Assembly (NCBI GenBank): GCA_030704615.1
Contig: CM060732.1
Location: 78,430,001-78,494,000 of the forward strand
From: Takakia lepidozioides
Lineage: Eukaryota > Plantae > Bryophyta
Direction of reading: 5' to 3'
DNA length: 64,000 nt
Part shown: positions 2,199 to 37,721 of the stretch, in pieces
Position numbering within the stretch: position 1 is the stretch's first letter
Layout of the letters: every line of letters starts with the position of its first letter
The notes under the pieces: generated by a model
Told to the model about the DNA's origin: nothing
The model's input: the letters and a program-made list of their open reading frames with translations, nothing else
Database searches by the model: none
Position numbers and translations under genes: made by a program

Positions 2199-2313
2199 GT
2201 CGCCCCATCGGGCTCACCGGGATCATCATCTTTTGGGCCGTTCCGCTTTCGCTTCGGCTTGCCCGACCCCATGATGAGGCCAATCCCAAAGAGGATCGCG
2301 TACTGAACTCTAA

Positions 2314-2325
2314 GCTCTGATACCA
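2314..2325 (-). promoter_or_regulatory. Primer-binding site complementary to the tRNA-iMet 3' end
   Basis: Plus-strand gctctgatacca reads TGGTATCAGAGC on the minus strand. Confidence 0.92.
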
Positions 2326-2327
2326 AG

Positions 2328-14467: not shown

Positions 14468-15662
14468 ATGCCTCCCAAGTTGGACCCATCGCAGGTGGTG
14501 GAGGTCTACGTTCGGGTCACAGGTATGTCTTCTTGCCATAGTTTTTTGCTGGTGCTCGTTGTGTGCTTTCGGTGAGATTAGATACAGGGCAGTCAGGGGT
14601 GTAACTAGTTCCATAGCCGCCTCTTTTCGGAAACCCACTCGGTGGTGGATGTGGGATGTAGGTGGAGAGGTTGGTGCAGCATCATCACTTGCACCTAAGA
14701 TCGGCCCTTTGGGTCTGTCTCCAAAGAAGATTGGAGAGGATATTGCCAAAGAAACAGCCAAAGACTGGAAGGGTTTGCGAGTTACAGTCAAGCTCACTGT
14801 GCAGAACCGACAGGTTTGGTTGGCCTTCCAAGCAATACCCCTTCATTTCCATGATAGTTCTGTTGCATCTATGATAGGTTTACCTTTGGGTCTCTCTCTG
14901 AGAAGATTGGAGAGGATATTGCCAAAGAAACAGCCAAAGACTGGAAGGGTTTACCAGTTACAGTCAAGCTCATTGTGCAGAACCGACAGGTTTGGTTGGC
15001 CTTCTAAGCAATACCCCTTCATTTCCATGATAGTTTTGTTGCATCTATGATAGGTTTATACTTTTATCTCGGCCGCAAATGTGCTAATATCAGTGTGATC
15101 TTCGTCTATCTCTGTCTAAGAGAAAGAGTTTAGCTGCGTGTCAGAAACTGGCCAGCTGTGAAAAGGGACATGAAAGACTGGCAGAGATAGGAAAGACAGC
15201 TGGGCAGAACTGGGCATTGGTTTCTGTTCTGTCTGGTCATCGACGTATATGCAAAAACATCCATGTATGGATGGGCTGGTTAGTTTCTGAGTTTTGGTAG
15301 ATCTGGGTACCCTTCCTTTTGGCTTGGATAACATTTATGTAGGGGTGATGGACTGTAACTATGTTCTGTAGGCAAAGGTAGCAGTGGTGCCTAGTGCTGC
15401 AGCCCTGGTGATCAAGGCTCTGAAGGAGCCAGAGCGGGATCGGAAGAAGACAAAGAACATCAAGCACAATGGCAACATTTCTCTCGATGACGTGATTGAG
15501 ATTGCTAAGATTATGGCTCCAAGGTCCATGGCCAAGCAATTGGCAGGCACTGTGAAGGAGATTTTGGGGACATGTGTGTCGGTAGGTTGTACCGTCGATG
15601 GAAAGGACCCTAAAGATCTTCAAACAGAGATCGATGAAGGGGAGGTTGAGATTCCCGAGTAA
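14468..15662 (+). CDS. RPL12: 60S ribosomal protein L12 (uL11); exons 14468-14522, 14662-14813, 15372-15662; 165 aa
   Basis: [41 protein letters not shown]...[11 protein letters not shown] with GT-AG introns and an intact frame. Confidence 0.96.
14706..15058 (+). repeat. Tandem duplication (about 177 bp) of the RPL12 exon-2 3' half plus splice donor
   Basis: 14706-14882 is repeated at 14883-15058 with a few substitutions and a 1-nt deletion. Confidence 0.9.
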
Positions 15663-17674: not shown

Positions 17675-17934
17675 GTATCTTATGACCACAATTGACTTGT
17701 TGAGATTGTTTTCTGGTTGTACCAAAATCGTTTGTCATCTTGACTACTTTTTGCAGCAACAAATGAAGCGAGCAGCAAATTGTCTCTGTAGGTCCATCTA
17801 TATCAGGTTGACACTTGAATTTCAATGCATGTTGTTTGTGAGGCACAAGCAATTGTCCTATTTGTTGATCCATCCCGCTGTGTGATTTCACGCAGCAGAG
17901 ATTGTCTCTCAGAACAGGGGGTTGCAGTAGACAC

Positions 17935-18905
17935 TCTACGAGATTTGGTGTCGTGGAGTGCGATGATTGTAGGGTATGCACAGCAAAGGCGCGGGATGGA
18001 GGCTTTGGAGACCTATGAGCAAATGATGGGGGAAGGGGTGAAGCCCGACCACATCACGTTTGTATCCGTTTGCAATGCCTGTGCAAGCCTGGCAGCCCTA
18101 GAAAAGGGAAAAGAGGTCCATGGTGACATCGTCAAAGCTAGAATTGTACACTGCCCTAGTGGACATGTATGCCAAATGTGGGTGCATTGAGGATGCGAAG
18201 GGAGTGTTCGACAATATGGCTGAACGAAATGTGGTGTCGTGGAACGCGATGTTCGCAGGATATGCCCAGCATGGTATCATAGGGAGGTCCTGCAACTATT
18301 TGGGGGAATGTAAAAGAACCGGACAGTATCACCTTTATATGTGTTCGCTCTGCATGCAGCCACTTTGGCCTACTGAATGAAGGAAATCAAGATCATGGTG
18401 TTACTCCGACAGTAAAGCACTTTGGCTGTATGGTGGACCTTCTTGGATGTGCGGGACAACTGGATGAGGTAGTGGATCTGATTAATAAGATGCTAATCAA
18501 TCCAGACGTTGTGGTGTGGAAGGCCTTGCTTCATGCCTGCAGAATGCATGGCAATGTGGAGATGGCTGAACGTGCGGCAACATCTATCCTCAAATGGGAT
18601 GAACACTAGGATGCCGCGACTTATGTGTTGCTATCAAACATCTGCAAAGGTGAGAAGAATGATGAAGGTTAGAGGGGTTAGAAAGGAGCCAGGTCGCTGC
18701 TGCATTGAGGTTGGCAACAGGGTGCACACCTTCACTGTAGATGACATCCCAGAATTAAGGAAATCGATGTTGAGCTGAGGCTGGGCAGATGAAAGGAGGC
18801 GGGGTATGTGCCTGACACGCGCTTTGTATTGCATGATGTGGGGGAGGAGGAAAAGGAATTTTCTGTTTGCCACCATAGTGAGAAGCTGGCCATTGGTTTT
18901 GTGTC
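17935..18905 (+). pseudogene. PLS-class PPR-E-DYW pseudogene (DYW truncated after HSEKLA)
   Basis: P/L/S motifs, HFGCMVDLLG, PDVVVWKALL, PG box KEPGRCCIEV, then [10 protein letters not shown]. Contains frameshifts. Confidence 0.88.
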
Positions 18906-21721
18906 TGGAGACGAAGGTAGTGGATCTGCCAACATCCAGTCCAAGAGGTGAAGTCCTGGCAGAACGGGAAGAGGAGATTTCAAGTACCTGAATATTAGGC
19001 AAGAGGAATTGACCCTGCTAAGATGAAGTTGACTTGGAAGTTGACTTGGAAGCTGACGTGTCCAAGGCCATATTGGAAGAGTGCAGAATGTCCAAACAAC
19101 AGTTAGGCATAAAACCCTGAACTCATTTCTGGTTTGTGACATGGATGAGTGAAGGGGCAGTGCGTGTGCAAACCTGGAAGCCCTGGAAAAGGGGAAAGAG
19201 GTCCATGATGAGATCGTCAAAGCTGGAATTGTACCAGATGTCATTCTGAACACTGCCCTGGTGGACATGTATGCCAAATGTGGGTGTATTAAGGATGCAA
19301 AGGCAGTTTTCAACAATATGCAGGCTGAACAAGATGTGGTGTCGTGGAGCGCGATGCTTGCAGGGTATGCACAGCAGGGAGGCTTTGGAGACCTATGAGC
19401 AAATGATGGGGGAAGGGGTGAAGCCCAACCACATCACGTTCGTTTGCGTTTGCAATGCATGTGCAAGCCTGGGAGCCCTGGAAAAGGGCAAAGAGGTCCA
19501 TGATGACATCGTCAAAGCTGGAATTCTACCAGATGTCATTTTGAACACTGCCCTGGTGGACATGTATGCCAAATGTGGGTGCATTAAGGATGCAAAGGCA
19601 GTTTTGAAAGTTCAACAATATGCAGGCTGAACGAGATGTGGTGTCGTGGAGCGCGATGCGTGCAAGGTATGCACAGCAGGGACGTGGGGTGGAGGCTTTG
19701 GAAACCTATGAGCAAATGATGGGGGAAGGGGTGAAGCCCAACCACATCACGTTTGTGTGCGTTTGCAATGCATGCGCAAGCCTGGCAGCTCTGGAAAAGG
19801 GCAAAGAGGTCCATGGCGACATGGTCAGAGCTGCAGTTGTACCAAATGTCATTCTCAACAATACCCTCGTGGACATGTAGGAAGGGAGTGTTTGAGAGTA
19901 TGGCTGAACGAGATGTGGTGTCGTGGAGTGCGATGATTGCAGGATATGCACAGCAAGGGCGCGGGATGGAGGCTTTGGAGACCTATGAGCAAATGATGTG
20001 CGAAGGGGGTGAAGCCCAACCACATAACGTTTGTTTGCATTTGCAATGTGTGTGCAAGCCTGGCAGCCCTGGAAAAGTGCACAGAGGTCCATGGTGACAT
20101 TATCAAATCTGGAATTGTACCCGATGTCATTCTGAACACTGCGACATGTATGTCAAATGTGGGTGCATCGAGGATGCAAATGGAGTATTTGACAGTATTG
20201 CTGAACGTGATGTGGTGTCATGGAATGTGATGATTGCAAGATATGCACAGCAAGGGTGCGGGATGGAGGCTTTGGACACCTATGAGCAAATGATGTGCGA
20301 AGGGGTGAAAACCAACCACATCACATTTGTGTGCGTTTGCAATGCGTGTGCAAGCCTGGGAGCCCTGGAAAAGGGGAAAGAGATCCATGGTGACATCGTC
20401 AAAGCTGGAATTGTACCAAATGTCATCCTGAACAATCCCCTGGTGGACATGTATGCGAAATGTGGGAGCATCGAGGATGTGAAGGGAGTTAATTTCAACA
20501 CCATGGCTGAACGAGATGTGGTGTCGTGGAACGCCATGCTTGCAGGGGTATGCACAACAGGGGCGTGGGATGGAGGCCTTGGAGACCTATGAGCAAATGA
20601 TGGGGGAAGGGGTGAAGCCCGACCACATCACGTTTGTGTGCGTTTGCAATGCGTGTGCAAGCCTGGCAGCCCTGGAAAAGGGCAAAGAGGTGCATGGTTG
20701 CATCGCCAAAGCGGAACTGTACCAGGTGTGATCCTGAATATTGCCTTGGTGGACATGTATGCCAAATGTGGGAGCATTGAGGATGCAGAGGGAGTGTTCA
20801 ACAATATGGCTGTTGTCGTGGAACGTGATGCTTGCAGGATATGCACAACAAGGCGTGGGATGGAGGACTTGGACACCTATGAGCAAATGATGGGGGAAGG
20901 GGTGAAACGCGACCACGTCACGTTTGTGTGCATTTGCAGTGCGTGTGCAAGCCTGCAGCCCTGGAAAAGGGCAAAGAGGTGCATGGTTGCATCGCTAAAG
21001 CTGGAATTGTACAGATGTGATTCTGAACAATACCCTGGTGGACATGTATGCCAAATGTGGGAGCATTGAGGATGTGGAGGGAGTGTTCAACAATATGGCT
21101 GAACGAGATTTGTTGTCGTGGAACGTGATGCTTGCAGGGTATGCATAGCAGGGGCGCGGGATGGAGGCCTTGGATCATACCTATGAACAAATGATGGGGG
21201 AAGGGGTGAAATGCAACCACATCACGTTTGTGAGCGTTTGCAATGCTTGTGCAAGCCTGGCAGCCCTGGAAAAGGGCAAAGAGGTCCATGATGGGGGAAG
21301 GGGGAAGCCCGACCACATCACGTTTGTGTGCATTTGTAATGCGTGTGCAAGCCACATTCATTTGTGTTCTCAATGTTGGTGCCAGCATGGTGGCCCTGGA
21401 GAAGGGCAAAGATATCCATGCTGACATTATCAAAGCTGGAATAGGGATGATGTCCGATTAGGTCACATTTGTTTGCATCCTCAAGGCTTGTGCGAGACTG
21501 GCAGCCCTGGAAAATGGCAAAGAGGTCTATGCTGACATATGAATGTTGGAGTTGTACCAAATCTGATTTTGAACAATAGCCTTGTTGACATGTATGCGAA
21601 ATGCGGGAGCATGAAGGTTGCAAAGAGAGTATTTGACAACATGGCTGAACGGGATGTGGTGTCGTGGAATGCGATGATCACAGGATATGCCCAGCATAGG
21701 TGTGGGATGGAGGCTTTGGGG

Positions 21722-21911
21722 TGTCGTGCGCATACATATCGCTACACAACTACATCGCTGTCCAAAACCACACAACACATGTGCACACCACACACTAGTA
21801 TACCACTAGTCTACCACTAGTCCAGCCACTAGTCCAACCACTAGGCTACAACTAGTCAGTCACTAGGCTGCCACTACGCTGCCCACTATGGCAGTCACTA
21901 GTCCACACAAT
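21722..21911 (-). repeat. Repeat A, terminal copy (190 bp)
   Basis: Identical to 22240-22429; begins TGTC on the plus strand. Confidence 0.95.
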
Positions 21912-22237
21912 GATAAAGAAGAAGAATACAAGCACAAGCTCATGCGAGCTCACAAAGCTGAAGCATAAACTCATGCATATATAACCTCATCACTCAAATA
22001 CAAGTCAAGCCAAGTGCACCCCACGCCATGGGGAATCCACACTACGGCGCCATAGCTAGGCGCGGTGAGGCTCAACTCGAGAAAGATGAGCCTCCCGCGC
22101 TTGCCGTGAAGATAACCACCCCAGGGCCTAAATCTGCCTTGACCCCTGGATTGACACTTGGGCCAATCCCAAATGTCAATATGTAAAAGCTAGCTATTTC
22201 CTAGCTAGTTTCACACTAGTGGTAAAATAACTTGACA
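21911..22237 (-). repeat. Repeat B, internal copy (327 bp)
   Basis: Matches 33546-33872 except for the penultimate base (C versus T). Confidence 0.95.
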
Positions 22238-22239
22238 GC

Positions 22240-22429
22240 TGTCGTGCGCATACATATCGCTACACAACTACATCGCTGTCCAAAACCACACAACACATGT
22301 GCACACCACACACTAGTATACCACTAGTCTACCACTAGTCCAGCCACTAGTCCAACCACTAGGCTACAACTAGTCAGTCACTAGGCTGCCACTACGCTGC
22401 CCACTATGGCAGTCACTAGTCCACACAAT
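22240..22429 (-). repeat. Repeat A, internal copy (190 bp)
   Basis: Separated from B by GC (22238-39) within the palindrome GACAGCTGTC. Confidence 0.95.
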
Positions 22430-22439
22430 CGCCCCCCTA
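22429..22439 (-). promoter_or_regulatory. Polypurine tract (plus-strand primer)
   Basis: Minus-strand AGGGGGGCGA lies immediately before TTGTGTGG, the start of repeat A. Confidence 0.7.
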
Positions 22440-22687
22440 GCTGGTGCTTAGGTCCCTCTAAGTCCAGGTAGCCACAAGATGTGATAGTGACCATAGCCTC
22501 ACTAAGTCCTCCACCACTATCCCTACTACACTCAAACTCGATAGATCAAGAGGCCGGGTGCAAGAGTTGCCCCATCGTTAGTCGCCGTCTTGCAACCTGT
22601 GAACTTGAGCTTGGGATCTCATGTATTGACTCCTATGAGCTTGGCCTCCCATGTCTTGTTAGCTGCCTCCAGTCATGTCCACTGCCA

Positions 22688-24430
22688 CTATCCCAAGCAG
22701 TGTGGACACAACCAATCTCCGTCAGGAACCTTCTCAAGAGGTGGTGTCAAGCATCCCATATGCCAACCCCTTGAGCATCGATCACACACCAGCATGGTGG
22801 CTGCCCCTTTGGCAGACCCACAGAGCATGCACCTCAAACCTGCAGGTACCACTGCCAAGTTTGGGTCAACTCTGCCATCGACATTGGGAAGGTGACATGG
22901 CGCACAATTACGCACATGGTCCTTCCAAGTCATGCCATCCCGACCCTCCAAGATCAGGACCCCTGAGGGCAACACCTCTCGAACCCTCAGAATAACACGC
23001 CCTGCAGTAACATCCAGAGTCGTAGGAGCAGTCTGCTGCAAATAAACATAGTCACCAGGGCTAAACCTCCGAACCCCAGGACGATATCCTCCACCACGTA
23101 TAGTGGCATACCTCAACGTATCACGGTGCTGTGCAATGGCAAGGTTCTCAAAAGCCATGGGCATGACTTTCTTGAACAACTCTGCACGCTGATCACATGC
23201 ACGTACCCACACGTCCGGATCGTCAAGGTTAAGGACTTGAGCAGTGTCCCTACGAATGGCTGCAGGCAAATCCGGCTCTCGGCCAAAGAGAAGGAAATAT
23301 GGTGAGAAGGAGGCAAGTGATGCTTGTTTGCTGAACCTGTAGCCCATGGCTAACCAAGGAACCTGAAGATCCCAATCTCCTAGGTGTCCCTTCTGCAAGC
23401 CATACTTGCGCAAACCCCTCTTCACCGTCTGAACAACTCTCTCTGCTAAGCCATCGGCCTCAGGATGATCCCGAGAAGTGGTGCGGTGGTCTATCAAGGC
23501 TTTATCACACAAAGCCTGAAACTCCCCCAAGAACTCTCTCCCTTGGTCCGTGAGTACCTCAGCTGGAGCACCAAATCGGCTAAGCACACGATCCAAGAAT
23601 GCATACGCAGCCCCCTCACTAGCCTTGTCAGGCAATGGAACCAACTCAATCCACTTGGAGAAGTGCTCCACCATCACCAACACATATCTGTGGTGGCGCA
23701 TAGTCAGTGGCAACGGTCCTGCGAAGTCAAGACTCCACCTGTAGCCCAATCCCATGATAGGTAAAGGATGCAACTGTGGTGTAGGGGCGTTGAATGAAGC
23801 ACGCACCCTGTCACACACCATGCACCTAGCCACAAACTGTTGCACCTCTGTATGCATACCACGCCACCAATACTGCCCCTGCAGTAAACTGTGAGTGCGT
23901 CGCACTCCAAAATGCCCCAACTCCTCATGGGCATGCCGCACTAACCGTGCACGCTGTGTGGGGTGAGGCACAATCCTCACCCGACCATCCTCCCACACTC
24001 GAAGTAGGTGTATCCCCTCCCACTTGAACCTCTTGGCTCGTTGCAGGATCCGATCCCTCTCCCTGGCAGTCACAATGGCTGCCGTGTCTCCCGTGCGGAG
24101 GTAGTCCAACACAGCCGAATCCTCATGTATATCTCTGGCACCACCTAGCTCATCACTAGCCTCAGGGTCCTCAGACACTCCGTCTACAGTCATCCCTGTT
24201 GTAGGTCCAATCTGACCTCCCGATGCCAAGATACACAAAAATGCAGATGCGTGCCATCCCGGCACCATCTCCTCGTCCGTCTCACCATGCCACCGAGCTC
24301 CAGTGTCATCCTGCTGGCTCATGCATGGATTGCGACTCAATCCATCCGCATCCCGATTGACCAAACCCGGTCGATGCACAACCTGAAAGTCATACTCCTG
24401 GAGTATAAGTGCCCACCGTGCAAGCTTCCC
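22688..24430 (-). CDS. Integrase (HHCC, DDE) with C-terminal PHD finger (22697-22831)
   Basis: HEELGH...CMVC, WSLDFAGP, VLTDQGREF, GLAERVV. C4HC3 finger: CMLC...CDRC...HMGC...WLCPHC. Confidence 0.95.
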   Translation of the reverse strand, partial: GKLARWALILQEYDFQVVHRPGLVNRDADGLSRNPCMSQQDDTGARWHGETDEEMVPGWHASAFLCILASGGQIGPTTGMTVDGVSEDPEASDELGGARDIHEDSAVLDYLRTGDTAAIVTARERDRILQRAKRFKWEGIHLLRVWEDGRVRIVPHPTQRARLVRHAHEELGHFGVRRTHSLLQGQYWWRGMHTEVQQFVARCMVCDRVRASFNAPTPQLHPLPIMGLGYRWSLDFAGPLPLTMRHHRYVLVMVEHFSKWIELVPLPDKASEGAAYAFLDRVLSRFGAPAEVLTDQGREFLGEFQALCDKALIDHRTTSRDHPEADGLAERVVQTVKRGLRKYGLQKGHLGDWDLQVPWLAMGYRFSKQASLASFSPYFLLFGREPDLPAAIRRDTAQVLNLDDPDVWVRACDQRAELFKKVMPMAFENLAIAQHRDTLRYATIRGGGYRPGVRRFSPGDYVYLQQTAPTTLDVTAGRVILRVREVLPSGVLILEGRDGMTWKDHVRNCAPCHLPNVDGRVDPNLAVVPAGLRCMLCGSAKGAATMLVCDRCSRGWHMGCLTPPLEKVPDGDWLCPHCLG

Positions 24431-25821
24431 GTAAGCTTGTCTGACTCCATCAACCACTTGAGTGGCTGGTGATCCGTGACAAGGGTGAAAAGATTGCCGT
24501 ATAGATAGCACCTGAAGTGTGCCACGGCCCACACTGCAGCTAAGCACTCTCCCTCATATGAGCTGTACTTAGCCTCTGCAGCGTTGTTCGAGCGGCTAGC
24601 GTAAGCCACTACGAACTCTCTTCCCTCATCATCCACCTGTGTGAGCACCGCTCCAAGCCCCAGCATGCTCCAATCCGTATGCAGCTGAAAGGGACGCCCC
24701 CTGATAGGTCGTCTCAAGATAGGCGCCGAGGTCAACCTCGCCTTGAGCTCTTGAAAAGCTCGTTCCTGCTCATCTTCCCACTGCCACTCCTGGTCCACCT
24801 TGGTCAGCTTGGTTAGAGCCTTTGCAATGGTACTAAATCCCTTGACAAACCGTCTATAATAGTTTGCCAACCCCATGAAAGCTCGAACTCGGCTCACATC
24901 CGTGGGGCGTGGAATTTGTGCAATGGCCTCTACCTTAGTCTGCTGTACCCCCAATCCTCCAGGATATATCATGTGACCCAGATACTCAATCTGGTTGTGG
25001 AAAAACTTGCACTTCCCCGGATGCAACTTCAATCCGTGCGCTCTCAAGCGCTCCAATACCACCTGAAGGTGTCTCTCATGCTCCTCCATCGTAACACTAA
25101 AGATGATGATGTCATCTATGTAGCACCGAGCAAAGTCCACCCCTGCTAGAATCCTATCCATGACTCTCTGAAACTCTGCAGGAGCATTCTTAAGCCCAAA
25201 TGGTAAGAACCGCCACTGATATAGGCAATCCTTGCCGTGCTCATTGATCCCCCAGAATGCCGTCTTCTGCTTGTCCGCCTCCTTGATTGGCAACTGGTGA
25301 TATCCGGATCGTAAATCCAAAGTGCTAAAGGCCTTAGCATGCCCGATGGCATCAAAGATCTCCTCTGGTGTTGGCATGGCATACTTATCGGACTTGGTCT
25401 GACGATTTACAGGCCGGTAATCACCGCACATACGTCTCTCCGTCCAATTGCCATAGACATCCTTCTTGGCTGGCATCACTGTGGCTGAAGCATACTCTCC
25501 ACCAGAGAGCTCCACCAAACCTGCCTCCCAGAGATCTTGAGTCCTCATCTGAATCAAAGACCTCTCCATGTCACTGTATCTATAGGGTCTCCGAAAGATT
25601 GGCGTGTCAGTGGCCAACTCAATACGGATCTCTTGACCCTTCAGTGCTCCCAAGTCCTTCAAACTGAAGGCAAAGCAATTCCTGTAAGCCCTCAGGAACC
25701 GCCGTATACGTCGTCTCTCTCCTCCGGTGACAATGGGTCCAATGTCAGGCTCCCAATTGTCCTCCGTAACTACAACCTTAAGTCCAGTGGGCTTAGAGGT
25801 AGAGGACGCGTCCCGTGGTTG
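24431..25821 (-). CDS. Reverse transcriptase and RNase H
   Basis: [39 protein letters not shown]; RNaseH LHTDWS, YEGECLA, TDHQPL. In frame with the MTase ORF across a single TAG. Confidence 0.95.
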
Positions 25822-27144
25822 CTATGCTGCAACCTCTTGAGCAGTACTCCCTACCTGCTCAGTCAATGACAAGGCATCATCCTGCCCCATCATCTCATCC
25901 TTGAGGACCTCCTCAACTCGAGAAGAATCCCCAACCTCATCCATCACAGCCGCCTTGGCTGCCAACTCCCTCTGAACCTCGAGCACCTCCCACGTGTGCC
26001 ATGGATGCATGCACCCCGTGGTCCTCATATGCTCGCCCCCACTCACTGCCTGTACCGTCTCGGTAGGCAGAGAGACCATTGAGGGAAGTGTATTCCGCAC
26101 TCTGCGTTGCTCAGCTAGAGCCAAGCTGATAATCCAGGTCAAGCAATTGAGATCCATTGCTTGCCCCAACACTTGACGACGTGATGCCTCAGAAAGAGAC
26201 GACACCGCCGTGGTACCAGTGGTAAAACCCATTGCCCGCTCACGCTCGTCAGCATTAGGCTCCACTAACTGCTGCAACTGAGCATCCCACAGGAGGCCAG
26301 GTCCACTATCCCGGAAAGCATGCGATCCTGGGAAGCTGAGCAGTGTAGGTAATGCTGCTCGTGGTTGACCCACCTTGTTGACCACTGCCAAAGGCGAACG
26401 GTCATCGTGTCTCACACGTTGAGACTGCCTCCCTGTGTCCAGAATGTTATCCACTGTGAGATGTGCTGGCCGCTGCACCCCATCAAATGCACGCTTGAGC
26501 AGTGCGGGTGGCATCATGTTAGTCCACCATAGCCGTGGACGATGAGCCCGTGACCCCACTGTAGCTGCATCCAGCAACACTGCTGACCCAAGCCACGACC
26601 GGACTTGATGCACACTGGCCATCACCCTGGCCCGAGAATCGCCCATCAGTGGCACATTCTCCAAGATGTATGCTGGAGATACAGCTTGATGAAGCTGCAA
26701 GTGGCGCAAAACCCGCACCATCTCCCAAAACAGACCCGACCTCGAGTCTCGCAATCCATTGCCATGCCCGGCTGATGAATGCCCTTGGCAGGGCCAACCT
26801 GCCACTACCAGATCAATGGAGCCAACCCGCTCCAAATCCTGCGCCCCCAGCAACGAAATGTCTGCTGGCAAGGCCTGCTGATATCCACGAATTGCAGACA
26901 CCGACAACAACTCAGGGTACCGCTGCACCAACTGAGCAACATGGCGAAGTGAAACGCGTCGTGCAGTCTCATCCCTCTCCACATACAGGTAACGCCGAAC
27001 TCGTACACCTGCCTGTAACACAGCAGCCAATCCGGTGCTGATCCCGCCAAACAAGTCCAGAAGACAAATGCCTTCATCCGGAGACTGCCACACAATAGGT
27101 GTGGTGTCCAATGGAGACAATTGAGGTGGTCCTGGTGCAATCCC
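25822..27144 (-). CDS. C5 cytosine DNA methyltransferase domain, DNMT3-like (catalytic core about 26130-27069)
   Basis: Motif I LLDLFGGISTG, II YVERD, IV DLVVAGWPCQ (Cys codon 26790-26788), V LFWEMVRVL, VI YILENV, VIII AHRPRLWWTN, IX ERERAMGF, X RRQVLGQAM, all in linear order. Confidence 0.93.
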   Translation of the reverse strand, partial: GIAPGPPQLSPLDTTPIVWQSPDEGICLLDLFGGISTGLAAVLQAGVRVRRYLYVERDETARRVSLRHVAQLVQRYPELLSVSAIRGYQQALPADISLLGAQDLERVGSIDLVVAGWPCQGHSSAGHGNGLRDSRSGLFWEMVRVLRHLQLHQAVSPAYILENVPLMGDSRARVMASVHQVRSWLGSAVLLDAATVGSRAHRPRLWWTNMMPPALLKRAFDGVQRPAHLTVDNILDTGRQSQRVRHDDRSPLAVVNKVGQPRAALPTLLSFPGSHAFRDSGPGLLWDAQLQQLVEPNADERERAMGFTTGTTAVSSLSEASRRQVLGQAMDLNCLTWIISLALAEQRRVRNTLPSMVSLPTETVQAVSGGEHMRTTGCMHPWHTWEVLEVQRELAAKAAVMDEVGDSSRVEEVLKDEMMGQDDALSLTEQVGSTAQEVAA

Positions 27145-28656
27145 ACACTCTCCTCCTCTCCTGACGGTACAAAAGCCTCCACCCAGGCTTGTTGCACCCG
27201 TCGATCAGCATCCCGCTGCAAATCCTTGCTCGTGCCCCACAATGGAGTCTGAGCAACCATGGTAGGCAACTCCGCCATACCATACATGTCATCCTGCTCT
27301 CCCGGAGGTGGTACATCCTCTGAATGAGCATTGCCCTCAAGCAACTCTCTAGGCCAACTCACTGCCGCTGTGAATGCTGCTAGTGTCGGCATCTTGCCTC
27401 GCTGGGCAACCGCAACTCCTCCTATGAACGTCACAGGGAGCTGCACACGCCGGCCCTCCCCTGACTGCCATGCAGGCCTATAGGAAGCTGACTCCTCCCA
27501 AAAATCCAGGGTGAAGCCCATGGGGTACAACACTGCCCCACCAACCAGGACATCGTATGAGACTGCGTCTGTCACAATGGCCTTGGCTCGCATCACTGAG
27601 CCATCTGTAGGGTGATCCGGCCGTAGTCTGATAGCCAACTCATGCCGTGTCATGCCCCGAGCCTGCTCCGATCCTCCCAGAGACGTCTGTATCTGGAAAG
27701 GACAAGGCTCCATATCCGCCTCCGTGAGGCCCAAGCCTGCAATAGCAGCTCTGCCCAGCATCAGTGGCTGAGCTCCCGAGTCCAACAAGACTCGCAGTGG
27801 CCGGTACCTCTTGCCTGCCGGTCCACTCAAACAGAAAATGTCATCCTGGTTGTCTAACATGACAACTCCAGGTGTCACCATGGCGCGCTCAATGGCTGGC
27901 CTAGCTGGCAGCTCCATCAACCTGGCAGCTGCAGCTTGCCATGGCGCCGCCGTGGCAGTCTTGACCCTCAAATCCGAGGATCCCTCCGGCACTACACCTC
28001 CCACTATCTCCGCAGAAGATGAAGTAACCTCCCCACTCTCACAGAGTGTAGCTGCCAGCCTGAACACCTCAGCTGGTCTTACCCCGGCGTCGCAATCATG
28101 GTAGCCGAAGAACAATGGAGCCTGGCACACAGATGTGGCCGCTCCTAGCAGCACACTAGCTGCCGTAGCCTTGGCAACACTAGGTAGTGGTGCTACCCGT
28201 GTAGCTCTCCCCAATGGCATAGTGACCTCCGCCTCGGTAACAGTCGGGCGAGAACTAGGTGCCATGGATGGCGTCGACACTGTCTCCGCCAATGTGAATG
28301 ACTGAGGAAGCCTAGCCTGACGGCTTGCCTCCCCACGCTGTGGATCCAACTCCACCTCTGCACCTCGTGGCTCAGGAACTCGTGCTGCTCCTCGAGTCAC
28401 GGCTGCAGCAGACTCCACCTGCACTAGTGGTAGTGCTGCTCCACACATGAATCCCATGCCTCCCATATCTCCTCCCTCAGGAGCAGGAGGTGGACCATCC
28501 GGCCTTAGAGCCGGTACCACCTGAGCTGTAGCCATGGCAGCGAGCCTCTGCTCTAGCTGCTGAAGCCGGTTGGCCATGCCTTGGTCAACACCCTGACCTC
28601 CGCGTCCTTGGCCACGTTGAGCTTGCCCTTGGCCTCGTGGCTGGCCACCTCGTCCC
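27145..28656 (-). CDS. Gag-pol linker and retropepsin aspartic protease
   Basis: RVLLDSGAQPLML and YDVLVGG motifs. Confidence 0.88.
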
Positions 28657-30183
28657 TCTGGGCTGCTCCACCTCGCCCCCGGCCACCATTGTTCCCTTGG
28701 AACTGGCCTGGGCGCAACTCAGGATGCAAACCATAACACTGAGCCTCTCCATGCCCGTGTTTGCCACAATGCCCACACTGTAACTGTGCAGGCTGTGCAT
28801 GTGCCGGCCCTTTGCCTCCCTCTGGACAATCCTTCTTGACATGGGGTCCTCCACATGTCCAGCACACCACATCCGCCCGTTGTTGGCCAGCAAATGAAGG
28901 GAGAGACCCCTGCATCTGAGGTCCTCTCTGCCCTTCCCTGAGCTTCACCTGAGCCCCCTTGTTGCCTTGAGCACGTTGAGGTAGTGGTTGGCTAGGAGCA
29001 CCACTACCCCGTGGTGTCTCCTTAGCAAATCCCACCATGACCACTCGTTCCTCCACCATGTTGAGCTCTATCCGCTCTGCCAGCAAAAACACATTTGCTA
29101 AGGTGGGTTGGGCCGCTTGTAGGAGAGTTGCATCCCGCACCCTTCTCCTCAGCTCCTTGTCCAATATCCCATACCAGAATTGGACTGCCTGAGCTTCCGT
29201 AACCCCTTGGGTTACATTTATCAAGCGCCTCATGCGAGTGAAAGCCTCCCTCAAGCTCTCGGTCGGCTTCCGTTGGAACTCTTGCAAGCTCCGCAACTTC
29301 TCTGTCCTCACCCCTTGGTAGTTCCCTCTCAACTCTTCGAAGAACTCCACGACAGGGTTGAAGGCAGGCACGGGTGCTAGTGCTGGTGCGGTAGTGGCTT
29401 GGGTGGACGTCGTAGCTACTGTACCACCAGTCCCACTGCTGCCTGCTGAAGCTGCCGGTGCAGCGGCAGGTGTAGCCACTGCCCTCGTGGCTCTAGTGCC
29501 CCTAGTGATGGAGACATAGTCGGGTGACCAGTACATCCTCCACTCCTCGATCTCAACCTCATGCCCCCGCCTGAACTCATGGTAATCATCCATAGGCGGC
29601 CCCTCAAGGTGCTGAAACAGCCCTTTCCATGCCATGAACGGCGTAAATAGTTGTGGATTGCGCATTTGCTGCAAATCACACCAACTATCAAACTCTTGGA
29701 TAAAATCATCCAACTCAATGGTGCCCACCGCCCCAGAGTACCTTCGTGGCCCCTTGGTAGCTCCATACATCTCCTCCATTGTGTCCCACAACAATGGCAA
29801 AGAAACAACTTGCACCGCCGGTATGAGTCCTCCTGATTCACAATCCGAATCAGAACCTTCCGTAGAAGACACAGGAGGTGAAGGTGGCCTAAACCGCACA
29901 CCTCGTCTCGTGTACCCACTAGTATCGCTAGTGCTCGAACCGGCACTGTCCCCAGCAACTAGTGGCACCTCCGTGTTGACACTCAACCGGTCATGAACAT
30001 GTCCCTAACCCCCTCTCCACAAGGTAACCGGGTAGAGAACCTGTTGCGGCTTATGGTTTGGAATACTAAGTTCCTAACATAGCCTACACCTGTACCTGCA
30101 TCCACCGCAAGCACTCCTATGGTTGGCTGGTCACTCACCTCCAACCTCACCACAGGAGAAACAATGATGGTCTGGCTGGTCAT
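28657..30183 (-). CDS. gag: Gag with two zinc knuckles; start uncertain (ATG 30183 if a further 1-nt slip at about 30004 is corrected)
   Basis: FQRKPTESLREAFTRMRRL, CWTCGGPHVKKDC, CGHCGKHGHGEAQC and an RGG-rich tail. Confidence 0.85.
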
Positions 30184-30689
30184 CACCCCAGCCTCACCAT
30201 CGACAGCATGCTCTAGGACTGGCCGGTGATCAAATCCGGACCAATCACCTATAAAAACAAGCGCCCACACAAAACTAGCATGGCGCACAGTCAAGCATGC
30301 AGGTATGGAGGGGATCCAAACACAAGAAATCAGATCGACAACTCCCCCACACCAAAACAACTCCACGGTGTTGCTCCTGCAAGGACACCCCAGCCCAAAC
30401 CCGGACTGACTCTTGCCTCCACCTACGGAAAGGTCTTGGCCTAATGAGAGGGTGGAAACTACGAGGAAGAGAAGCTAAAGCAATGCCTAACCCCAGCATG
30501 CTCTCATCCCAACACTCTGCCTCTCCTCTCTATCCTCACTTGCATGACCATGGGAATATCATGAAGATACTCCTCAAACCGCCCTCCACGAGCTTCAAAA
30601 TTTGGCCTTCCAGACCACATGCCAGTCCTTAGGCAGTCCACCAGTGCCTCCACGAGTCAGCACAGGCCGTCCACAGGTCAACACGGCCA

Positions 30690-32105
30690 CCACAGACCAG
30701 CACAGGCCCACACAGCTCACTGGTCAGGCCGTCACAGTCCCACAGGCCACTGGGCACAGCCTGTCGCAGCCCTCACAGCCTCAACAGCCTGTCACAGCAC
30801 AAACGCCTCAAGGCTCACTTCCACGGCCTGTCACACAGCCTGACCAGCCGTCACAGCCCCACAGGCCACAGGGCACAGCCTGTCACAGCCCCCACACACA
30901 GCCCTCAACGCCCTCACAGCCTGCCACAGCCACCCACAGCCCGTCACAGCCCCACAGCCTCACAGCCTCACACCCTCACACCACACACCCGTCACAGCCC
31001 CCAGGGCACAGGGCACAACCCTGTCACAGCCCCTCACAGCCCTCACAGCCCCAAAGGCCTCAGGCACGGCCTGTCACAGCCCCTCACAGCCCGTCACAGC
31101 CCCAAAGGCCATGGGCACGGCCTGTCACAGCAGCCATCACACCACAGCCAATCCCCCTCACAGCACTGCCTTCACAGCCCCCCAAGCCATCACAGCCTTC
31201 ACAGCCCCTCACACAACCCTCAACCCACACCTCACACACACGACAGCCCTCACAGCCTCAGCACCCTGTCACACCCCTCACAGCCCGTCACAGCCCCAAA
31301 GGCCATGGGCACACAGCCTTCACAGCTCGCCACAGCCTTCACAGCCCGTCACAACACACCTCCCCAAGGCCTCAGGGCACAGCCTGTCACAGCCCCGCAC
31401 AGCCCGTCACAGCCCCAAAGGCCACTGGGCACAGCCTGTCACAGCCTGACACACACATCAGCCCGTCCCAGCCCCACATCCTCACACACAGGGCACAGCC
31501 TGTCACAGCCCATCACAGCCCATCATAGCCGGTCACAGCTCCACAGCCTGTCACAGCCCGTCACAGCCCCACAGGCCACTGGGCACAGCCTGTCACAGCC
31601 CGTCACAGCCCCACAGGGCACAGGGCACAGCCTGTCACAGCCCCTCACAGCCCGTCACAGCCCAAAGGCCTCAGGCACGGCCTGTCACAGCCCGTCACAG
31701 CCCCAAAGGCCACTGGGCACAGCCTTCACAGCCTGACACAGCTTGCCACAGCCTGTCACAGCCCGTCACAGCCCCACAGGCCACTGGGCACAGCCTGTCA
31801 CAGCCCATCACAGCCCCACAGGCCATGGGCACAACAGCCTGTCACAGCTCGCCACAGCCTGTCACAGCCCGTCACAGCCCCACAGGCCTCAGGGCACAGT
31901 CTGTCACAGCCCCGCACAGCCTGTCACAGCTCGCCACAGCCTGACACAGCCCGCACAGCCCCACAGGGCACAGGGCCAGCCTGTCACAGTCCCTCACAGC
32001 CACGCCCGTCACAGCCCCAAAGGCCTCAGGCACAGCCTGTCACAGCCCCAAAGGCCACTGGGCACAGCCTGTCACAGCCTGACACAGCCCGTCACAGCCC
32101 CACAC
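30690..32105. repeat. Minisatellite of about 1.4 kb made of CACAGCC/CCTGTCACAG units in the element's 5' leader
   Basis: Dense cacagcc, tgtcacagcc and ggccactgggcacagcc units. Confidence 0.93.
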
Positions 32106-33503
32106 ATGGCCGCTCTGGCAGTTTAGCCATTTCTCCAAGGGGTTTAGCCACGCCAAGCTAGGGTTTGTGTCTCTTGGACTCTAGGCTTCTTTCCACCGAG
32201 CTATGGTGGCTGTGAGGAAATCAGCAAGGTATCCTTGCTCTTTCGGCTCCCACACACCACCATAGTAGCCCTAAGCCATGAGGTGGTTGCCACAAACCAA
32301 GCCTTCTTTCTCACTTAGCCTCCCCAACCACGCCACTAAACTCAATGGCAAACAACCAAGCCCTGCTGGTTCCCAGCCCTTGTGAGCACTCATTCAAGCA
32401 CTCCCCTCATTGACCATAGCATCTGTCTTAGAGCCTATTCCAGCCCTCTACACCTGTTGCTTCAAGAGTTGCGCTCCCTCCAAGCTTGAAGTTGAAACCC
32501 CAACTCACATAGGCCCTACAAGTGCTGTTCTTTCACTCCAAGTGGAAACCAGCCCTAGACCTTCCGTTCTAGCTCTCTAAGGCTTGAAACAAGAGCCTCA
32601 ATGGGCTGAAGGCATGCTCCACACATGCCCCACTCTCACCATAAGAGAATCAGCTCCTTTGCTTCATTTCTCGCACCCACAAACCTGAAAGTGCAAGCCT
32701 TCATCAGGCTGATAGCATGCTCCACACATGCATTGCCCTCACATAAGGGAAGTCAGCCCTTCCACTTCCTTGCTTGCCCTCCAAGCTTGAAGATGGAAGC
32801 TTCAATGAGCTGAATACATGCTCCACACATGCAACCTCTTCACACAAGAGATATCAGCCCCCTATCTTGGCTCCTTGGCTCCTTGATGCTCTCTAAGACA
32901 AGACTAAGCACTCCACAGCCTTTGCCAAGCTCCTGAAACCCTAAGACTTACATTTCCAGCCACAAGACACTTCTCTTGTGGTGCAAGAGCTCTTCTTCCA
33001 GCTCTGAAACCCTAGGTGCACATTCCATGGCCTTGCCGCACCTCTTAGCTCCTGTTCCACCATGCTCTTGCCATGACAAGAGCCCTCTCAATGCTGAAGC
33101 TCGAGATTGAAACCCAATCTCACCACACTCCACAAAGTGCATTGATTTGCCGCAAGCCAAATCAGCCCTTTCGCTTGGTCTTGCAATCCTTCACACAATG
33201 AAAGCTCGCATTCCCAAGTCCAGTTCTCAGCTTTGCCACCAAAGCCACTATAACCTGCTCTTGACTGGTCCTCTTCCCAATCGTGCTTGCTCATGCATGT
33301 ACACAATCTGGAACCATCAAGGTGCTCTGGAATTACCTGCAGCATGGTGCTTTCATCTCTGAAGCTGAAGATCAAATGCCAAGGTCTACCACCTCGTAAC
33401 CCACATCGCCTCCGCTTCTAACAACCAAGAGCTCCACGGTGCTCCTTGCATAACAATTTGGTTTCTCTCATTCTCAAGCAAAAACCACAAGTGCTACAAC
33501 TAA

Positions 33504-33545
33504 CTCGTATCTAGCACTCATAGATACGAGCTCATCTTTCTCGAG
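33504..33545 (-). promoter_or_regulatory. Non-tRNA PBS-position sequence (16 nt complementary to 33711-33726) plus adjacent 10-bp hairpin
   Basis: GCTCATCTTTCTCGAG (33530-45) is the exact reverse complement of CTCGAGAAAGATGAGC (33711-26). Hairpin: ctcgtatcta-gcactca-tagatacgag. Confidence 0.7.
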
Positions 33546-33872
33546 TGATAAAGAAGAAGAATACAAGCACAAGCTCATGCGAGCTCACAAAGCTGAAGCA
33601 TAAACTCATGCATATATAACCTCATCACTCAAATACAAGTCAAGCCAAGTGCACCCCACGCCATGGGGAATCCACACTACGGCGCCATAGCTAGGCGCGG
33701 TGAGGCTCAACTCGAGAAAGATGAGCCTCCCGCGCTTGCCGTGAAGATAACCACCCCAGGGCCTAAATCTGCCTTGACCCCTGGATTGACACTTGGGCCA
33801 ATCCCAAATGTCAATATGTAAAAGCTAGCTATTTCCTAGCTAGTTTCACACTAGTGGTAAAATAACTTGATA
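33546..33872 (-). repeat. Repeat B, terminal copy (5' end of the element)
   Basis: Matches 21911-22237. Confidence 0.95.
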
Positions 33873-36644
33873 GGGGACCTATGAGCAAAAGATGCGGAAG
33901 CATTCAACAGAATGCCTCAACGATCTTGATCACGTGGAATATAATGTTGGCAGGATTTACCAAGCATGGGTGTGGTAGGAATGCTTTTGAGACCTATGAG
34001 CAGATTATGTGCAAAGGGGTGAAGCCCAACCACATCAGATTTGTTTGTGTTTGCAATGCATGTGCAAGCCTAGCAGCCCTGGAAAAGGGCAAAGAGGTGC
34101 ATGGTTGCATCGCCAAAGCTGGAATTGTACCAGATGTGATTATGAACAATACCCTCGTAGACATGTATGCCAAATGTGGGAGCATCGAAAATGTGGAGGG
34201 ACGAGATGTGGTTGCATTTCACGACGAGATTGTGAACGAGATTTGGTGTCATGGAACGCCATGTTTGTAGGATATGCACAACAGGGGTGCGGGATGGAGG
34301 CCTGAGGGAAGGGGTGAAGCCCGACCACATCACGTTTGTGTGCATTTGCAATGCGTGTGCAAGCCTGGCAGCCCTAGAAAAGGGCAAAGAGGTTCATGGT
34401 GACATCATCAAAGCTGGAATTGTACCAAATGTCATTCTGGACACTGCCCTGCTTCACTTGTATGCGAAATGTGACTGCAATGAGGATGCAAAGGGAGTAT
34501 TTGACAATATGGCTGAATGAAATGTGGTGTCGTGGAATGCGATGATCGCAGGATATGCCCAGCATGGTTGTCATAGGGAGGTCCAACAACTATTTGAAGG
34601 AATGTAAAAGAAAGGCTTGAAGCTGGACAGTATCACCTTTATATGTGTTCTCTCTCCCTGCAGCCACACTGACCTACTGAATGAAGGAAGATGCTACTTC
34701 GATTCCCTGAGTGAAGATCATGGTATCAATCTGACAGTAAAGCACTTTGGCTGCATGGTGGACCTTCTTGGACGTGCGGGACAACTGGATGAGGCAGTGG
34801 ACCTGATTAATAAAATGCCAATCAATCCAGATGTTGTGGTGTGGAAGGCCTTGCTTGGTGCCTGCAGAATCCATGGCAATGTGGAGATGGCTGAATGTGT
34901 GGCAACATCTATCCTCAAGTGGGATGAACATGATGCCACGACTTATGTGGTGTTATATCAAACATCCATGTTGCAGCTGGCAGATGGGATGATATTGCAA
35001 AGGTGAGAAGAATGATGAAGGTCAGAGGGGTTAAAAAGGAGCCAGATGACAAGTTGCATCCCAGAATTAAGGAAATCCATGTTGAGCTGAGAAGATTGTC
35101 TGGGCAGATGAAGGAGGCGGGGTATGTGCCTGACACACGCTTTTTATTGCATGATGTGGAGGAAAGGAATTTTCTCTTAGCCACCACAGTGAGAAGCTGG
35201 CCATTGGTTTTGGGCTGATCAACACGACTCATCAAGAATCTTCGAGTGTGTGGAGACTGCCACACCTCCACCAAATTCATCTCAAAGATTGTTGGCCAAG
35301 CAATTGTTGTATGGGACGCTAACTACTTTTCACCACTTTGAAGATGGGATTTGTTCTTGTGGTGATTACTGGTGAAAGGATGTTTTCTTGGAAAGATGCT
35401 AGTGTCTTGCTTCATTCCTTGATCTGTGTAGCTACTCAGACCATCCACCATTTCCTGATAGTGGGGTCTACCCGGCATAGGTAGGAAGTCAGCCCACAAT
35501 TGCACTTGACTGAAGGGGTGATTTTTGACTGATTCTGGTGCAGTGGATGGAAATCAGAGTGCTGTCCTAATTCTGGTGGAGCTTCTCTAAAGCTTGAAGA
35601 TGGAAGTGAATACGAATTTTAATGAGCTTGATGAGAGGGGCAGCCCTGTGCACAAGTTTGTTCAGCATCTTAAATTTGGACATGTTTGTTGTTTCTCGTG
35701 GTGTGGCTTTGGATGGAGCCCTTGATGAACTTACATGATTATTGTCAAAAGCTAGCCTTAACCCACCAAGATCCAATCCCACGGTGGATGCTTGAAAGTT
35801 CATATAGCAAATGTAAGGGTATTTGGGTATGTTGTTATTGATTGATGTGGCTTGTGAAAATTGAATGTTGAAATGCAGATCCACCATTTTTCTTCCAGAA
35901 AAAAACAAAACACGGGACCTCTGCATGTAAACACCGTGGGGATGACCCACCCTTTTTTTGTGAAAAATTGAACTTAGTTCTTAGAATTCGTCGCTAGTAG
36001 TGTGGAGCAACGCGAAGCCCTAGTTGAGTGAAGACAGTTTACAGCAGAGGAGCCCGATCCCACCGACCACGTGCAGGACATTGCCGCATTCGGAGTGTGC
36101 GGGAGGACGTGGAGCCAGCTATGTTGCCCATTTTTGTACATATATTCTAGCGACGACCTAAGGTCGGAAGCTAGTTTAGCGTAGAGCAGGAATAGGGTGC
36201 CATAGTGCCACGTCATCGTCGCCATGTCATCATAGACACGTCATCGTCGTCGTCAATTTCTTTGGAACCTGCCCAGAATGCCCTCGCGAAATAGGCCAAT
36301 AGAAATCGTCGCGCCAACGTTTTAGGAACTGCCCGCAATGCCCGGATCTTGATCTTCTTGATCTTCTTGATCTTCTTGATCTGCGTTTTCCGCCATCGTT
36401 CACCTTGCAAGCACATGCATGGATAGCTGAAGGAGCAGGGATCGAGTGTGGGTCCAGATTCATAGATCGATCCGACATTATCTTACTACAGACACAAGCA
36501 GCACACACAACATGTTATTGCCAGGTTGTGTTTCAATCTCTGCCTCCTATTAGTACCATGATTTGGTATTCTTCCTGATGTTTACAAGGTTCTTGCGAGA
36601 GTCAGCTTGGTCTTGCCAGGCCGTGTTTCAATCTCTGCCTGCTT

Positions 36645-36960
36645 AGAGATCCACGCTGACCTTGTTAAAACTGGATTAGCGCTTACTGGAGTCTGCCCTT
36701 GCTGACATGTATGCTGAATGTGGGAGCATGAACTATGCATGTCAAGTTTCAACAATATGGCAAAACGAAATATTGTCCCTCGGAGTTCAGTGATAGCAGG
36801 ATGTGCTCTGCATGGGTGCAGCAGAAAAGTTTTTGAGACCTACGAGCAAATGCAACATGAAGGGGTAAGGTCGAACAGGGTCACGTCCATTTGTGTTCTC
36901 AATGCATGTGCCAAATTTGGAGCCCTGGAAAAGGACAAGCGGGTCCCTGCTGACTTTAGG
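36645..36960 (+). pseudogene. Diverged PPR fragment
   Basis: DMYAECGS...ETYEQMQHEGVRSNRVTSICVLNACA. Confidence 0.7.
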
Positions 36961-37090
36961 AAAACTGTTGCACATTATATTAGCTTGGACACAATCAAGG
37001 CAAAAAGGTGAATGCCTGTTGGAAGCATAAGAAAGTCAGCATAGGAACTAGTGTGATAAGTCTAGGCTGTATGAGTATCCTTGCTTATAG

Positions 37091-37548
37091 CTGCATCCAT
37101 GAGGTGAAATCATGGAAGCTTCGGACGCAGTCCTTGTGGCATTTGCAAAAAGTGGACAAGTGAGTCGAAATGCTGCTTGTCCATGCGGCTCTAGAAAGAA
37201 GTACAAGAGGTGGGTTCTCGCTCTTTTCACAGCTCCTCTCATCTCTCTGCCCCATTCCAATGGGAGTGTTGTAAGGCGGAGAGAAGCAATGTTTCTGGCT
37301 GCTTTATCTCACATTCATACTTAAACAGATGGATTTTGTGGCTAGATGAGTCAAATTTCAAACTTAAAGCAAAGCAAGTAGTACTATCAAACATCATGTG
37401 GCCTGGCAATAAGCTGGTCGTGCGGCATCTATGGCTTGAACACTATCTTACAAGCAAAGTATGCTCCAAATATATTGCCTATCCTTTACTAGACCATGAC
37501 TGGTAAAAATCTGGGGAGTTCTGTTGCAGGTGTTGTAGGAAGTCATAA
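37091..37548 (+). pseudogene. Orphan last two exons of a SEC-C motif protein (37091-37209, 37530-37548)
   Basis: QVSRNAACPCGSRKKYK-R|CCRKS* is spliced across a GT-AG intron. An upstream in-frame TGA is present. Confidence 0.7.
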
Positions 37549-37721
37549 GCTTGGACTTGAAACAGGGAAGTCATGTTGCATAAGCACGCACTTATGAAGA
37601 GTTTGTGCTCTGTTGTGAGGTCAGGTGGCCTCCTGCCGTTTTATCGTTATGGTCACCTACTTTCATTCCAAAGGGACTTTGACAGATGCAACTGGGTCTT
37701 TACATCTTTACATCAGCACTT

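Follow-up and report, generated by a model that had tools for sequence, protein, structure and literature searches.

The locus raised the question of how a retrotransposon in a land plant comes to carry its own cytosine methyltransferase, how that enzyme is made, and on which DNA it acts. The stretch of DNA analysed (64 kb, hereafter the window) contains an element that proved to be a real, widespread land-plant branch of a retrotransposon kind already known. The explanation preferred here, with a probability of roughly 0.6, is that it is a recent, frame-broken Gypsy-Dnmt3 copy whose methyltransferase would be made at the level of Gag, packaged, and used within the particle to methylate the element's own new cDNA. 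The element and its coding regions are listed below.

21722..33872, minus strand: whole Ty3/Gypsy element, 12,151 bp, in a broken PLS-type PPR gene; outer ends TATC (TA for TG) and GACA
33873..33876: target-site duplication, 5' side, 4 bp, GGGG on the plus strand
21718..21721: target-site duplication, 3' side, 4 bp
30646..32106, minus strand: degenerate tandem-repeat tract with units of 10-42 bp, in the long 5' leader
28706..29779, minus strand: Gag with CCHC knuckles (open frame 28553-30004; weak match to PF03732; 58% identity to residues 1-357 of Marchantia Mp4g09160)
27141..28577, minus strand: spacer and aspartic protease (LLDSGA near 27780; second frame in this copy; weak Pfam match, E 0.03)
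25825..27141, minus strand: DNMT3-like C5 cytosine methyltransferase and C-terminal tail (core about 26110-27090; from Pfam, profile, predicted fold and motifs)
25816..25824, minus strand: conserved stop in the readthrough context TAG CAA CCA; the TAG (25822-25824) parts the methyltransferase from the reverse transcriptase (RT)
24430..25821, minus strand: RT and RNase H (YIDD at 25122), in frame with the methyltransferase
22688..24430, minus strand: end of RNase H, DDE integrase (HHCC, D-D-35-E) and C-terminal PHD finger (Pfam and sequence)

The domain set and order of a Ty3/Gypsy element (Gag, protease, RT, RNase H, integrase) were present, and the best solved relative of the RT was the Ty3 RT (E 2.5e-69). 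The methyltransferase lies between protease and RT, as an earlier note on this DNA had stated, with the LLDSGA protease before it and RT, RNase H, integrase and PHD finger after it. No chromodomain was found on the integrase in the Pfam scan; it carries a PHD finger. The coding region consists of five long minus-strand frames in series, carrying Gag (28553-30004), protease (26805-28718), methyltransferase (25822-27204), RT-RNase H (24337-25821) and integrase-PHD (22688-24553).

The frame of the interrupted PLS-type PPR gene reads on across the empty insertion site from one flank to the other. PPR arrays of the PLS/E type lie on both sides of the element and match streptophyte clusters, so the host is a land plant, as had been supposed. 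The PLS-type units of ~300 bp form long arrays (17900-21700, 33900-35100 and 36700-42900) that contain numerous frame breaks and three or more E-domain ends and look like a pseudogene cluster of RNA-editing factors in rapid turnover. A second, unrelated Ty3/Gypsy element on the minus strand (1-3400) is cut by the window start and retains a Gag frame (1036-2175; PF03732, PF19259) and RT remnants (20-418). Elsewhere in the window were seen a fragment of a ribosomal protein L11/L12 N-terminal domain inside a 176-bp tandem duplication (14433-15058), a frame with an F-box domain (59808-60365), and degenerate T/G-rich repeats with TTAGGG-like units and a short AACCTA run (61500-62250 and 54447-54478), which are telomere-like or the end of a repeat element. 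No tRNA genes were found within the 64-kb window.

The paired repeats of the element differed at 1 of about 517 positions (A1/A2 and B1/B2 together), so its insertion is recent. Set against unbroken relatives, the coding region of this copy is interrupted by frame breaks at three places: from Gag to protease (~28580-28710), from protease to methyltransferase (~27141), and within RNase H (~24427). Contigs from three runs show one-base length differences at each of these breaks or close by; of the 12 length differences listed, 9 are bases that the window sequence lacks, so the breaks may reflect either assembly errors or the decay of a copy mobilised in trans. Reads of the three runs covered the whole element. 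An independent contig of 2,325 nt spanned 25760-27200 with 8 substitutions and 1 gap, 23 further differences lying outside the listing; the gap sits at the protease/methyltransferase break, and none of the differences listed falls at the stop. Summed contig depth over the element was about 5,000-39,000 in run X1 and 240-1,650 in run X5, with 12-44 for unique flank contigs, which shows that the host holds many copies but does not give a copy number. Two raw-read RNA runs gave 0 reads over the element, a result that carries no weight on expression, and run X12, which is RNA only by guess, yielded 13 contigs.

The methyltransferase frame (25822-27204, minus strand) matched PF00145 with E 5.7e-13 and 49.4 bits (cut-off 22). 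Its motifs I-X run in linear order, from LFGGISTG (27054), VERD (26982), GWPCQ (26799) and ENV (26661) to AHRPRLWWTN (26547), ERERAMGF (26247) and RRQVLGQAM (26181). In the family profile comparison the best match was human DNMT3A (E 3e-22), followed by DRM (3e-13 to 3e-11) and by HaeIII, DNMT2 and HhaI (about 1e-6). An AlphaFold model of the domain (pLDDT 77.6, pTM 0.84) retrieved DNMT3A/3B chains in all 40 rows shown of a structure search, with a best E of 1.2e-16. Among solved structures the nearest to the domain are thus DNMT3A/3B, and DRM, DNMT2 and bacterial enzymes rank behind them. The profile and fold rankings reject these other enzymes as nearest solved relative, and membership in DRM is rejected by the linear motif order, which lacks the DRM permutation, and by the weaker DRM matches. 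The description of the domain as a complete, DNMT3-style C5 methyltransferase with intact motifs, unlike permuted DRM, was borne out. The residues of the PC, ENV, HR-R and IX/X motifs occupy invariant or near-invariant columns in both alignments.

Domain searches returned 275 relatives of near-equal length and 58 longer ones, and 265 representatives at E < 1e-30. The named relatives listed come from Marchantia polymorpha, M. paleacea, Calypogeia, Riccia, three Sphagnum species, Closterium, Klebsormidium nitens and Scenedesmus, and no vascular plant is among them. The nearest named domains are those of liverworts and mosses (Calypogeia, 76%), so a bryophyte host is likely. A Marchantia cluster has 18 members on the autosomes and the V chromosome, several of them Gag-PR-DNMT proteins of 1,278-1,281 residues; the domain therefore extends well beyond this copy. 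Prokaryote genomes contained one whole element, locus L090, in a cyanobacterial metagenome-assembled genome (MAG); this locus and protein P0021, both from assemblies labelled cyanobacteria, are likely eukaryotic contamination of MAGs. The viral collection gave 30 distant phage methyltransferases and no integrase locus, and no relative with split repeats that lacks the methyltransferase was found. Two decayed copies (L041, L059) carry inverted partial duplications of protease and methyltransferase. Proteins P0172, P0202 and P0203 represent a DIRS-like element with a related C5 methyltransferase inside the RT region together with a Dam adenine methyltransferase (PF05869), a dual-methyltransferase retroelement.

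Two layouts were seen in the family, PR-DNMT-RT and RT-RH-DNMT-INT-PHD, and both the RT tree and the DNMT tree separate them by a branch. The second, sister group comprises L048, P0218, P0350 and about 45 further proteins, with Scenedesmus as the sole named source; L048 keeps the GACA-NN-TGTC junction, and no description of the group was found in the literature. The K. nitens protein KFL_009030040 has the order PR-DNMT-RT-RH-INT and is 41-52% identical to the window element over DNMT-RT-INT; its domains suggest that it is a copy of KnitGypsy-Dnmt3. All 23 PR-DNMT-RT rows, including K. nitens, six from Closterium and the window, fell on one side of a branch with SH-aLRT 97 in the RT tree (40 rows) and 95 in the DNMT tree (39 rows). 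Both are quick trees from which near-duplicates and 29 of the 45 RH-DNMT-INT rows were left out, and the DNMT tree further omits rows without RT, the long branches of fish and DIRS-like sequences, and one half-filled row. In another quick DNMT tree, which kept a fish DNMT3 as a long outgroup, the basal position of the K. nitens row was not settled. The window element thus almost certainly belongs to the KnitGypsy-Dnmt3 lineage of Klebsormidium and is not a separate land-plant capture.

Path lengths of DNMT and RT were correlated (Spearman 0.76 over 62 rows, in which kin share history), which shows long co-inheritance, not co-adaptation. In the unsaturated pair L016/L028, dN/dS was 0.13 for DNMT, 0.16 for RT and 0.22 for protease. 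It was 0.07-0.20 for DNMT in the six saturated between-lineage pairs with a value, and 0.5-1.0 in decayed moss-type copies, as for RT and protease; in every comparison DNMT resembled RT. By these ratios the domain is under purifying selection between lineages and evolves near neutrally among the decayed moss-type copies.

The position of the enzyme relative to pol differs from what had been described. A domain inside pol holds for Klebsormidium and Closterium, but here the methyltransferase closes the Gag-PR frame, with the conserved stop before RT. A stop (TAG or TAA) followed by CAR stood at the same place in 35 of the 43 rows that hold DNMT and downstream RT; these rows are 42 of 59 metagenome loci and the window, 4 of them uninspected. 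Since many of the loci belong to a single family or repeat one locus across samples, the independent units number about five lineages. Strict CARYYA followed the stop in 7 of the 43 rows, against a background of 8 in 5,008 stop triplets in the window. Three rows (L052, L058, L023) are one C-to-T change from a stop with CAR, and in L027 the stop is gone. The intact loci L028 and L090 have nothing but the stop between the Gag-PR-DNMT frame and an RT-RH-INT-PHD frame of 1,047 codons. Proteins from Marchantia and elsewhere terminate 59-145 residues past the methyltransferase domain. A private mutation of this copy is rejected by the conservation of the stop across the family.

The stop is absent from the Klebsormidium and Closterium proteins and from several basal rows, so it looks like a derived trait of the clade to which every named land-plant row belongs (SH-aLRT 100 in RT, 98 in DNMT), with a rooting that rests on the RH-DNMT-INT group. 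Readthrough of a stop is also known from SIRE1 pol-env. CAR YYA after UAG is the readthrough signal of TMV, and viral contexts reach 9-32% in plants, according to the part of PMC2754532 consulted. In this copy the first Met after the stop is codon 85, within RT. The stop is very probably read through by a minority of ribosomes to give Pol, although the moss-type family has CAACCC, without strict CARYYA, and an ATG two codons past the stop, so that re-initiation is possible there. Because the domain ends the Gag-PR frame at a stop that is probably read through, the methyltransferase is likely made at the level of Gag and packaged; the effect of the stop would be to raise the enzyme from Pol to Gag stoichiometry.

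The terminal regions bear on how the element is copied and inserted.

33547..33872, minus strand: repeat A1 (5' end; predicted to hold the rest of U3, R and U5), 1 mismatch to A2 in 328 aligned bases
21912..22237, minus strand: repeat A2, pair of A1
22240..22429, minus strand: repeat B1 (ends CGACA), 190/190 identical to B2
21722..21911, minus strand: repeat B2 (3' end of the element), pair of B1
22234..22243, minus strand: internal junction GACA-GC-TGTC (B1/A2), a stored copy of the joined outer ends
22430..22439, minus strand: polypurine tract (PPT) directly before B1; same place in L006, L010, L014, L017, L018, L021, L040 and L046
33710..33726, minus strand: predicted self-primer (predicted RNA 5' end), fully complementary over 17 nt to the bases that directly follow A1
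33530..33546, minus strand: predicted primer-binding site of the self-priming type, pairing with 33710..33726; arrangement shared, in other letters, by L028, L090 and moss-type loci

The order is A1, internal region, PPT, B1, two bases, A2 and B2 (A...B-A-B). The assignment to LTR-type retrotransposons was right in the Gypsy domains and DDE integrase but not in the repeats, which are split and form no full LTR pair. A canonical LTR retrotransposon, with a full LTR at each end, was rejected since A stands at the 5' end and B-A-B at the 3' end. A tyrosine-recombinase (YR) retrotransposon of the DIRS, PAT or Ngaro type was rejected on the rve integrase with D-D-35-E, the 4-bp duplication and a Pfam scan without a recombinase domain, and B2 as a chance tandem duplication on the conservation of the layout.

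No tRNA-type primer site follows A1. The self-priming complement measured 17 nt in the window, where shuffled sequence reaches at most 9 nt, 16 nt in L028 and 13 nt in L090; among 11 moss-type 5' ends it was 10-12 nt at the matching place in 4, absent in 6 and misplaced in 1, and in L048 it was at chance level. These complements argue strongly for Tf1-type self-priming of reverse transcription, which we consider highly probable.

GACA-NN-TGTC was found at the junction in nine sequences (the window, L006, L014, L017, L028, L040, L046, L090 and, in the other layout, L048). Judged from sequence, the element ends correspond to a normal LTR pair that is circularly permuted about a CA-NN-TG junction. 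All 10 moss-type 5' ends scored for their start begin at the TGTC of A, next to unrelated flanks, and none follows B. At the 3' side, four moss-type loci have B-junction-A-B, two or three stop at B alone, and the others are cut off or deleted. One locus (L018) has an A...B form with a 4-bp duplication, which could have come from B1-B2 recombination or from cutting of both junctions. The A2/B2 joint was exact or of equal length in 5 of 5 complete 3' ends, and it corresponds to the U5 end joined to the plus-strand start. The mirror permutation (A-B-junction-A at the 5' end) occurred in 0 of 11 5' ends. A staggered cut after each CA leaves two-base 5' overhangs, which are the processed retroviral ends of established integrase chemistry. 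The foamy-virus integrase cleaves an LTR-LTR palindrome, as reported in the portion of PMC1180852 consulted. Cutting of the joined-end junction at CA-NN-TG by the integrase is accordingly a fairly probable route for this element; an unbiased cut of a 2-LTR circle predicts both permutations, and the junction-cut model leaves the 0 of 11 mirror ends unexplained.

In the preferred reading, Gag-PR-DNMT is followed by the conserved stop and, in the same frame, by RT-RH-INT-PHD, and minority readthrough would yield Pol. From the complement in A and the PPT before B, Tf1-type self-priming and otherwise ordinary LTR reverse transcription would produce a cDNA with B-junction-A at both ends. The integrated form is A...B-junction-A-B with TG/CA ends and a 4-bp duplication; it would arise if the cDNA ends were joined, in a 2-LTR circle or an equivalent repaired break, and a staggered integrase cut at CA-NN-TG yielded both processed ends at once. 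Before it inserts, the cDNA would be marked by the methyltransferase, and the new copy would thus be methylated on arrival, as self-restraint or as camouflage. That the substrate is the element's own cDNA we favour by a small measure, because both layouts fuse the domain to particle proteins and its catalytic residues are conserved. De Mendoza et al. (2018) proposed action on own cDNA for DIRS elements, in the text of PMC5890265. The CpG ratio was 0.46-0.63 in the element and 0.46-0.60 in the flanks, and this equal depletion gives no compositional sign of extra methylation.

A much bolder extension, which we regard as improbable, would make this a green-plant-wide Gypsy lineage in which the joined-end junction is the obligatory integrase substrate, its copy is stored inside the element, and the methyltransferase is kept to mark the junction. 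The B end is always CGACA and the A end, on its own strand, TGACA; CpG methylation, with 5mC mimicking T, would license or block the cut at one of two identical junctions and so explain the single permutation.

Other accounts were weighed against methylation of the cDNA in the particle. An active enzyme might instead act on host chromatin at or near the insertion, or on host loci in trans, through free Gag-PR-DNMT or the PHD finger of the integrase. Synthesis at the level of Gag would far exceed the enzyme need of one cDNA, and both the PHD finger and the high copy load in the host agree with such a target. Yet the domain is fused to Gag here and to RT/integrase in the sister clade, all particle proteins, no chromatin-reader domain shares its frame, and the Klebsormidium methylome is described as ordinary in the text of PMC5890265; we therefore consider this target rather unlikely. 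A non-catalytic or RNA-directed job (junction binding, packaging or RNA methylation) seems less likely still. The Klebsormidium domain did not methylate yeast DNA, an assay that the authors call inconclusive in the same text (PMC5890265), and of the 120 near relatives listed, 10 are gene models that are short or broken and have no Pfam call over the motif region, which is not diagnostic. The near-invariance of the catalytic and motif residues and a fold of DNMT3, not DNMT2, speak against such a job.

The ends of the element might also be rebuilt by a splint, with internal B1-A2 templating the circle junction and no ordinary two-LTR cDNA; this is the model for the tyrosine-recombinase elements PAT, Ngaro and TOC1. 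The shared A...B-A-B layout is in its favour, as is an A2/B2 joint that is tidier in all five ends than end-joining usually is. The PPT and the co-varying self-priming site, however, lie exactly where an ordinary B-junction-A LTR needs them, and the DDE integrase, the 4-bp duplication and the missing recombinase domain also oppose it, so we hold splinting to be unlikely though worth keeping in view. The three frame breaks could raise the suspicion that a single copy captured the domain by accident, or that the assembly is chimeric or contaminated, but this can practically be dismissed. Against it stand the 275 and 58 relatives, with liverworts and mosses among those named, the 18-member Marchantia cluster, the reads of three runs over the whole element, the independent contig across the domain, and a target duplication inside a plant PPR gene.

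The role of retrotransposon-borne DNMTs has been a question since 2018 because the hosts so far have been difficult experimentally. Long Gag-PR-DNMT gene models are present in many copies in Marchantia polymorpha (for example Mp4g09160, Mp5g06330 and MpVg00370), a model with methylation mutants, so the role can now be tested directly. With members in Scenedesmus, Klebsormidium, Closterium, liverworts and mosses, the lineage seems much older and broader than a capture confined to Klebsormidium. If the junction-cut reading is true, the permuted ends would represent a natural DDE-integrase retroelement that uses a joined-end junction for insertion. Such elements would be missed or wrongly annotated by LTR finders built to expect a full LTR at both ends, and counts of bryophyte "DNA methyltransferase genes" must allow for retrotransposon copies.

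KnitGypsy-Dnmt3 was described by de Mendoza et al. (2018) from Klebsormidium nitens, and from Klebsormidium only in the text of PMC5890265, where a legend gives it DIRS-like repeats with Gypsy domains. Self-priming, the junction and members outside Klebsormidium are not described in that text, and Marchantia is absent from it and from the three supplements searched; the main supplementary PDF, which may bear on the repeats, lay outside this scope. In the parts consulted, PMC12344493 and bioRxiv 10.64898/2026.05.21.726589 cite the 2018 elements as "streptophytes" without land-plant detail, and PMC5784723, PMC10952607, PMC11982613 and PMC6453930 list host methyltransferases and leave such elements unmentioned. 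The open full-text literature gave no description of land-plant or chlorophyte members, with subscription Marchantia and Sphagnum genome papers and Repbase reports outside its scope, nor of a split-repeat DDE Gypsy element apart from the 2018 legend. We did not find the readthrough stop, the self-priming or the junction-cut reading of the split repeats in print.

Compared with known systems, the domain shares fold and motif order with host moss DNMT3 (Yaari et al. 2019) and animal DNMT3A/B, but it is about 20-22% identical to DNMT3A, lacks PWWP and ADD, is intronless and is fused to Gag-PR. As in TMV, UAG is followed by CAR YYA, whereas the stop of the element would separate Gag-PR-DNMT from RT and leave protease and methyltransferase on the abundant product. 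Tf1/Sushi-type elements and the Gypsy element Tcn1 have a primer-binding site complementary to their own terminal repeat (Neumann et al. 2019, PMC6317226; Guo et al. 2015, PMC4600332; in the parts consulted); the window element shares the putative self-priming site, seen here as a sequence complement, and the lack of a tRNA site, but differs in its PHD finger in place of a chromodomain, its split repeats and its methyltransferase. PAT, Ngaro, TOC1 and SymbioDIRS-Dnmt3 likewise have A...B-A-B with an internal junction, and several of them carry a methyltransferase domain, but the window element has a protease, a DDE integrase, a PPT, TG/CA ends and a 4-bp duplication, and no recombinase. With KnitGypsy-Dnmt3, as far as the text of the 2018 paper describes it, it has in common the Gypsy domains, an unpermuted DNMT3-like domain between protease and RT, split repeats, purifying selection and one RT clade; the algal protein is one open frame, whereas the land-plant clade has the conserved stop and the host of the window element is an embryophyte.
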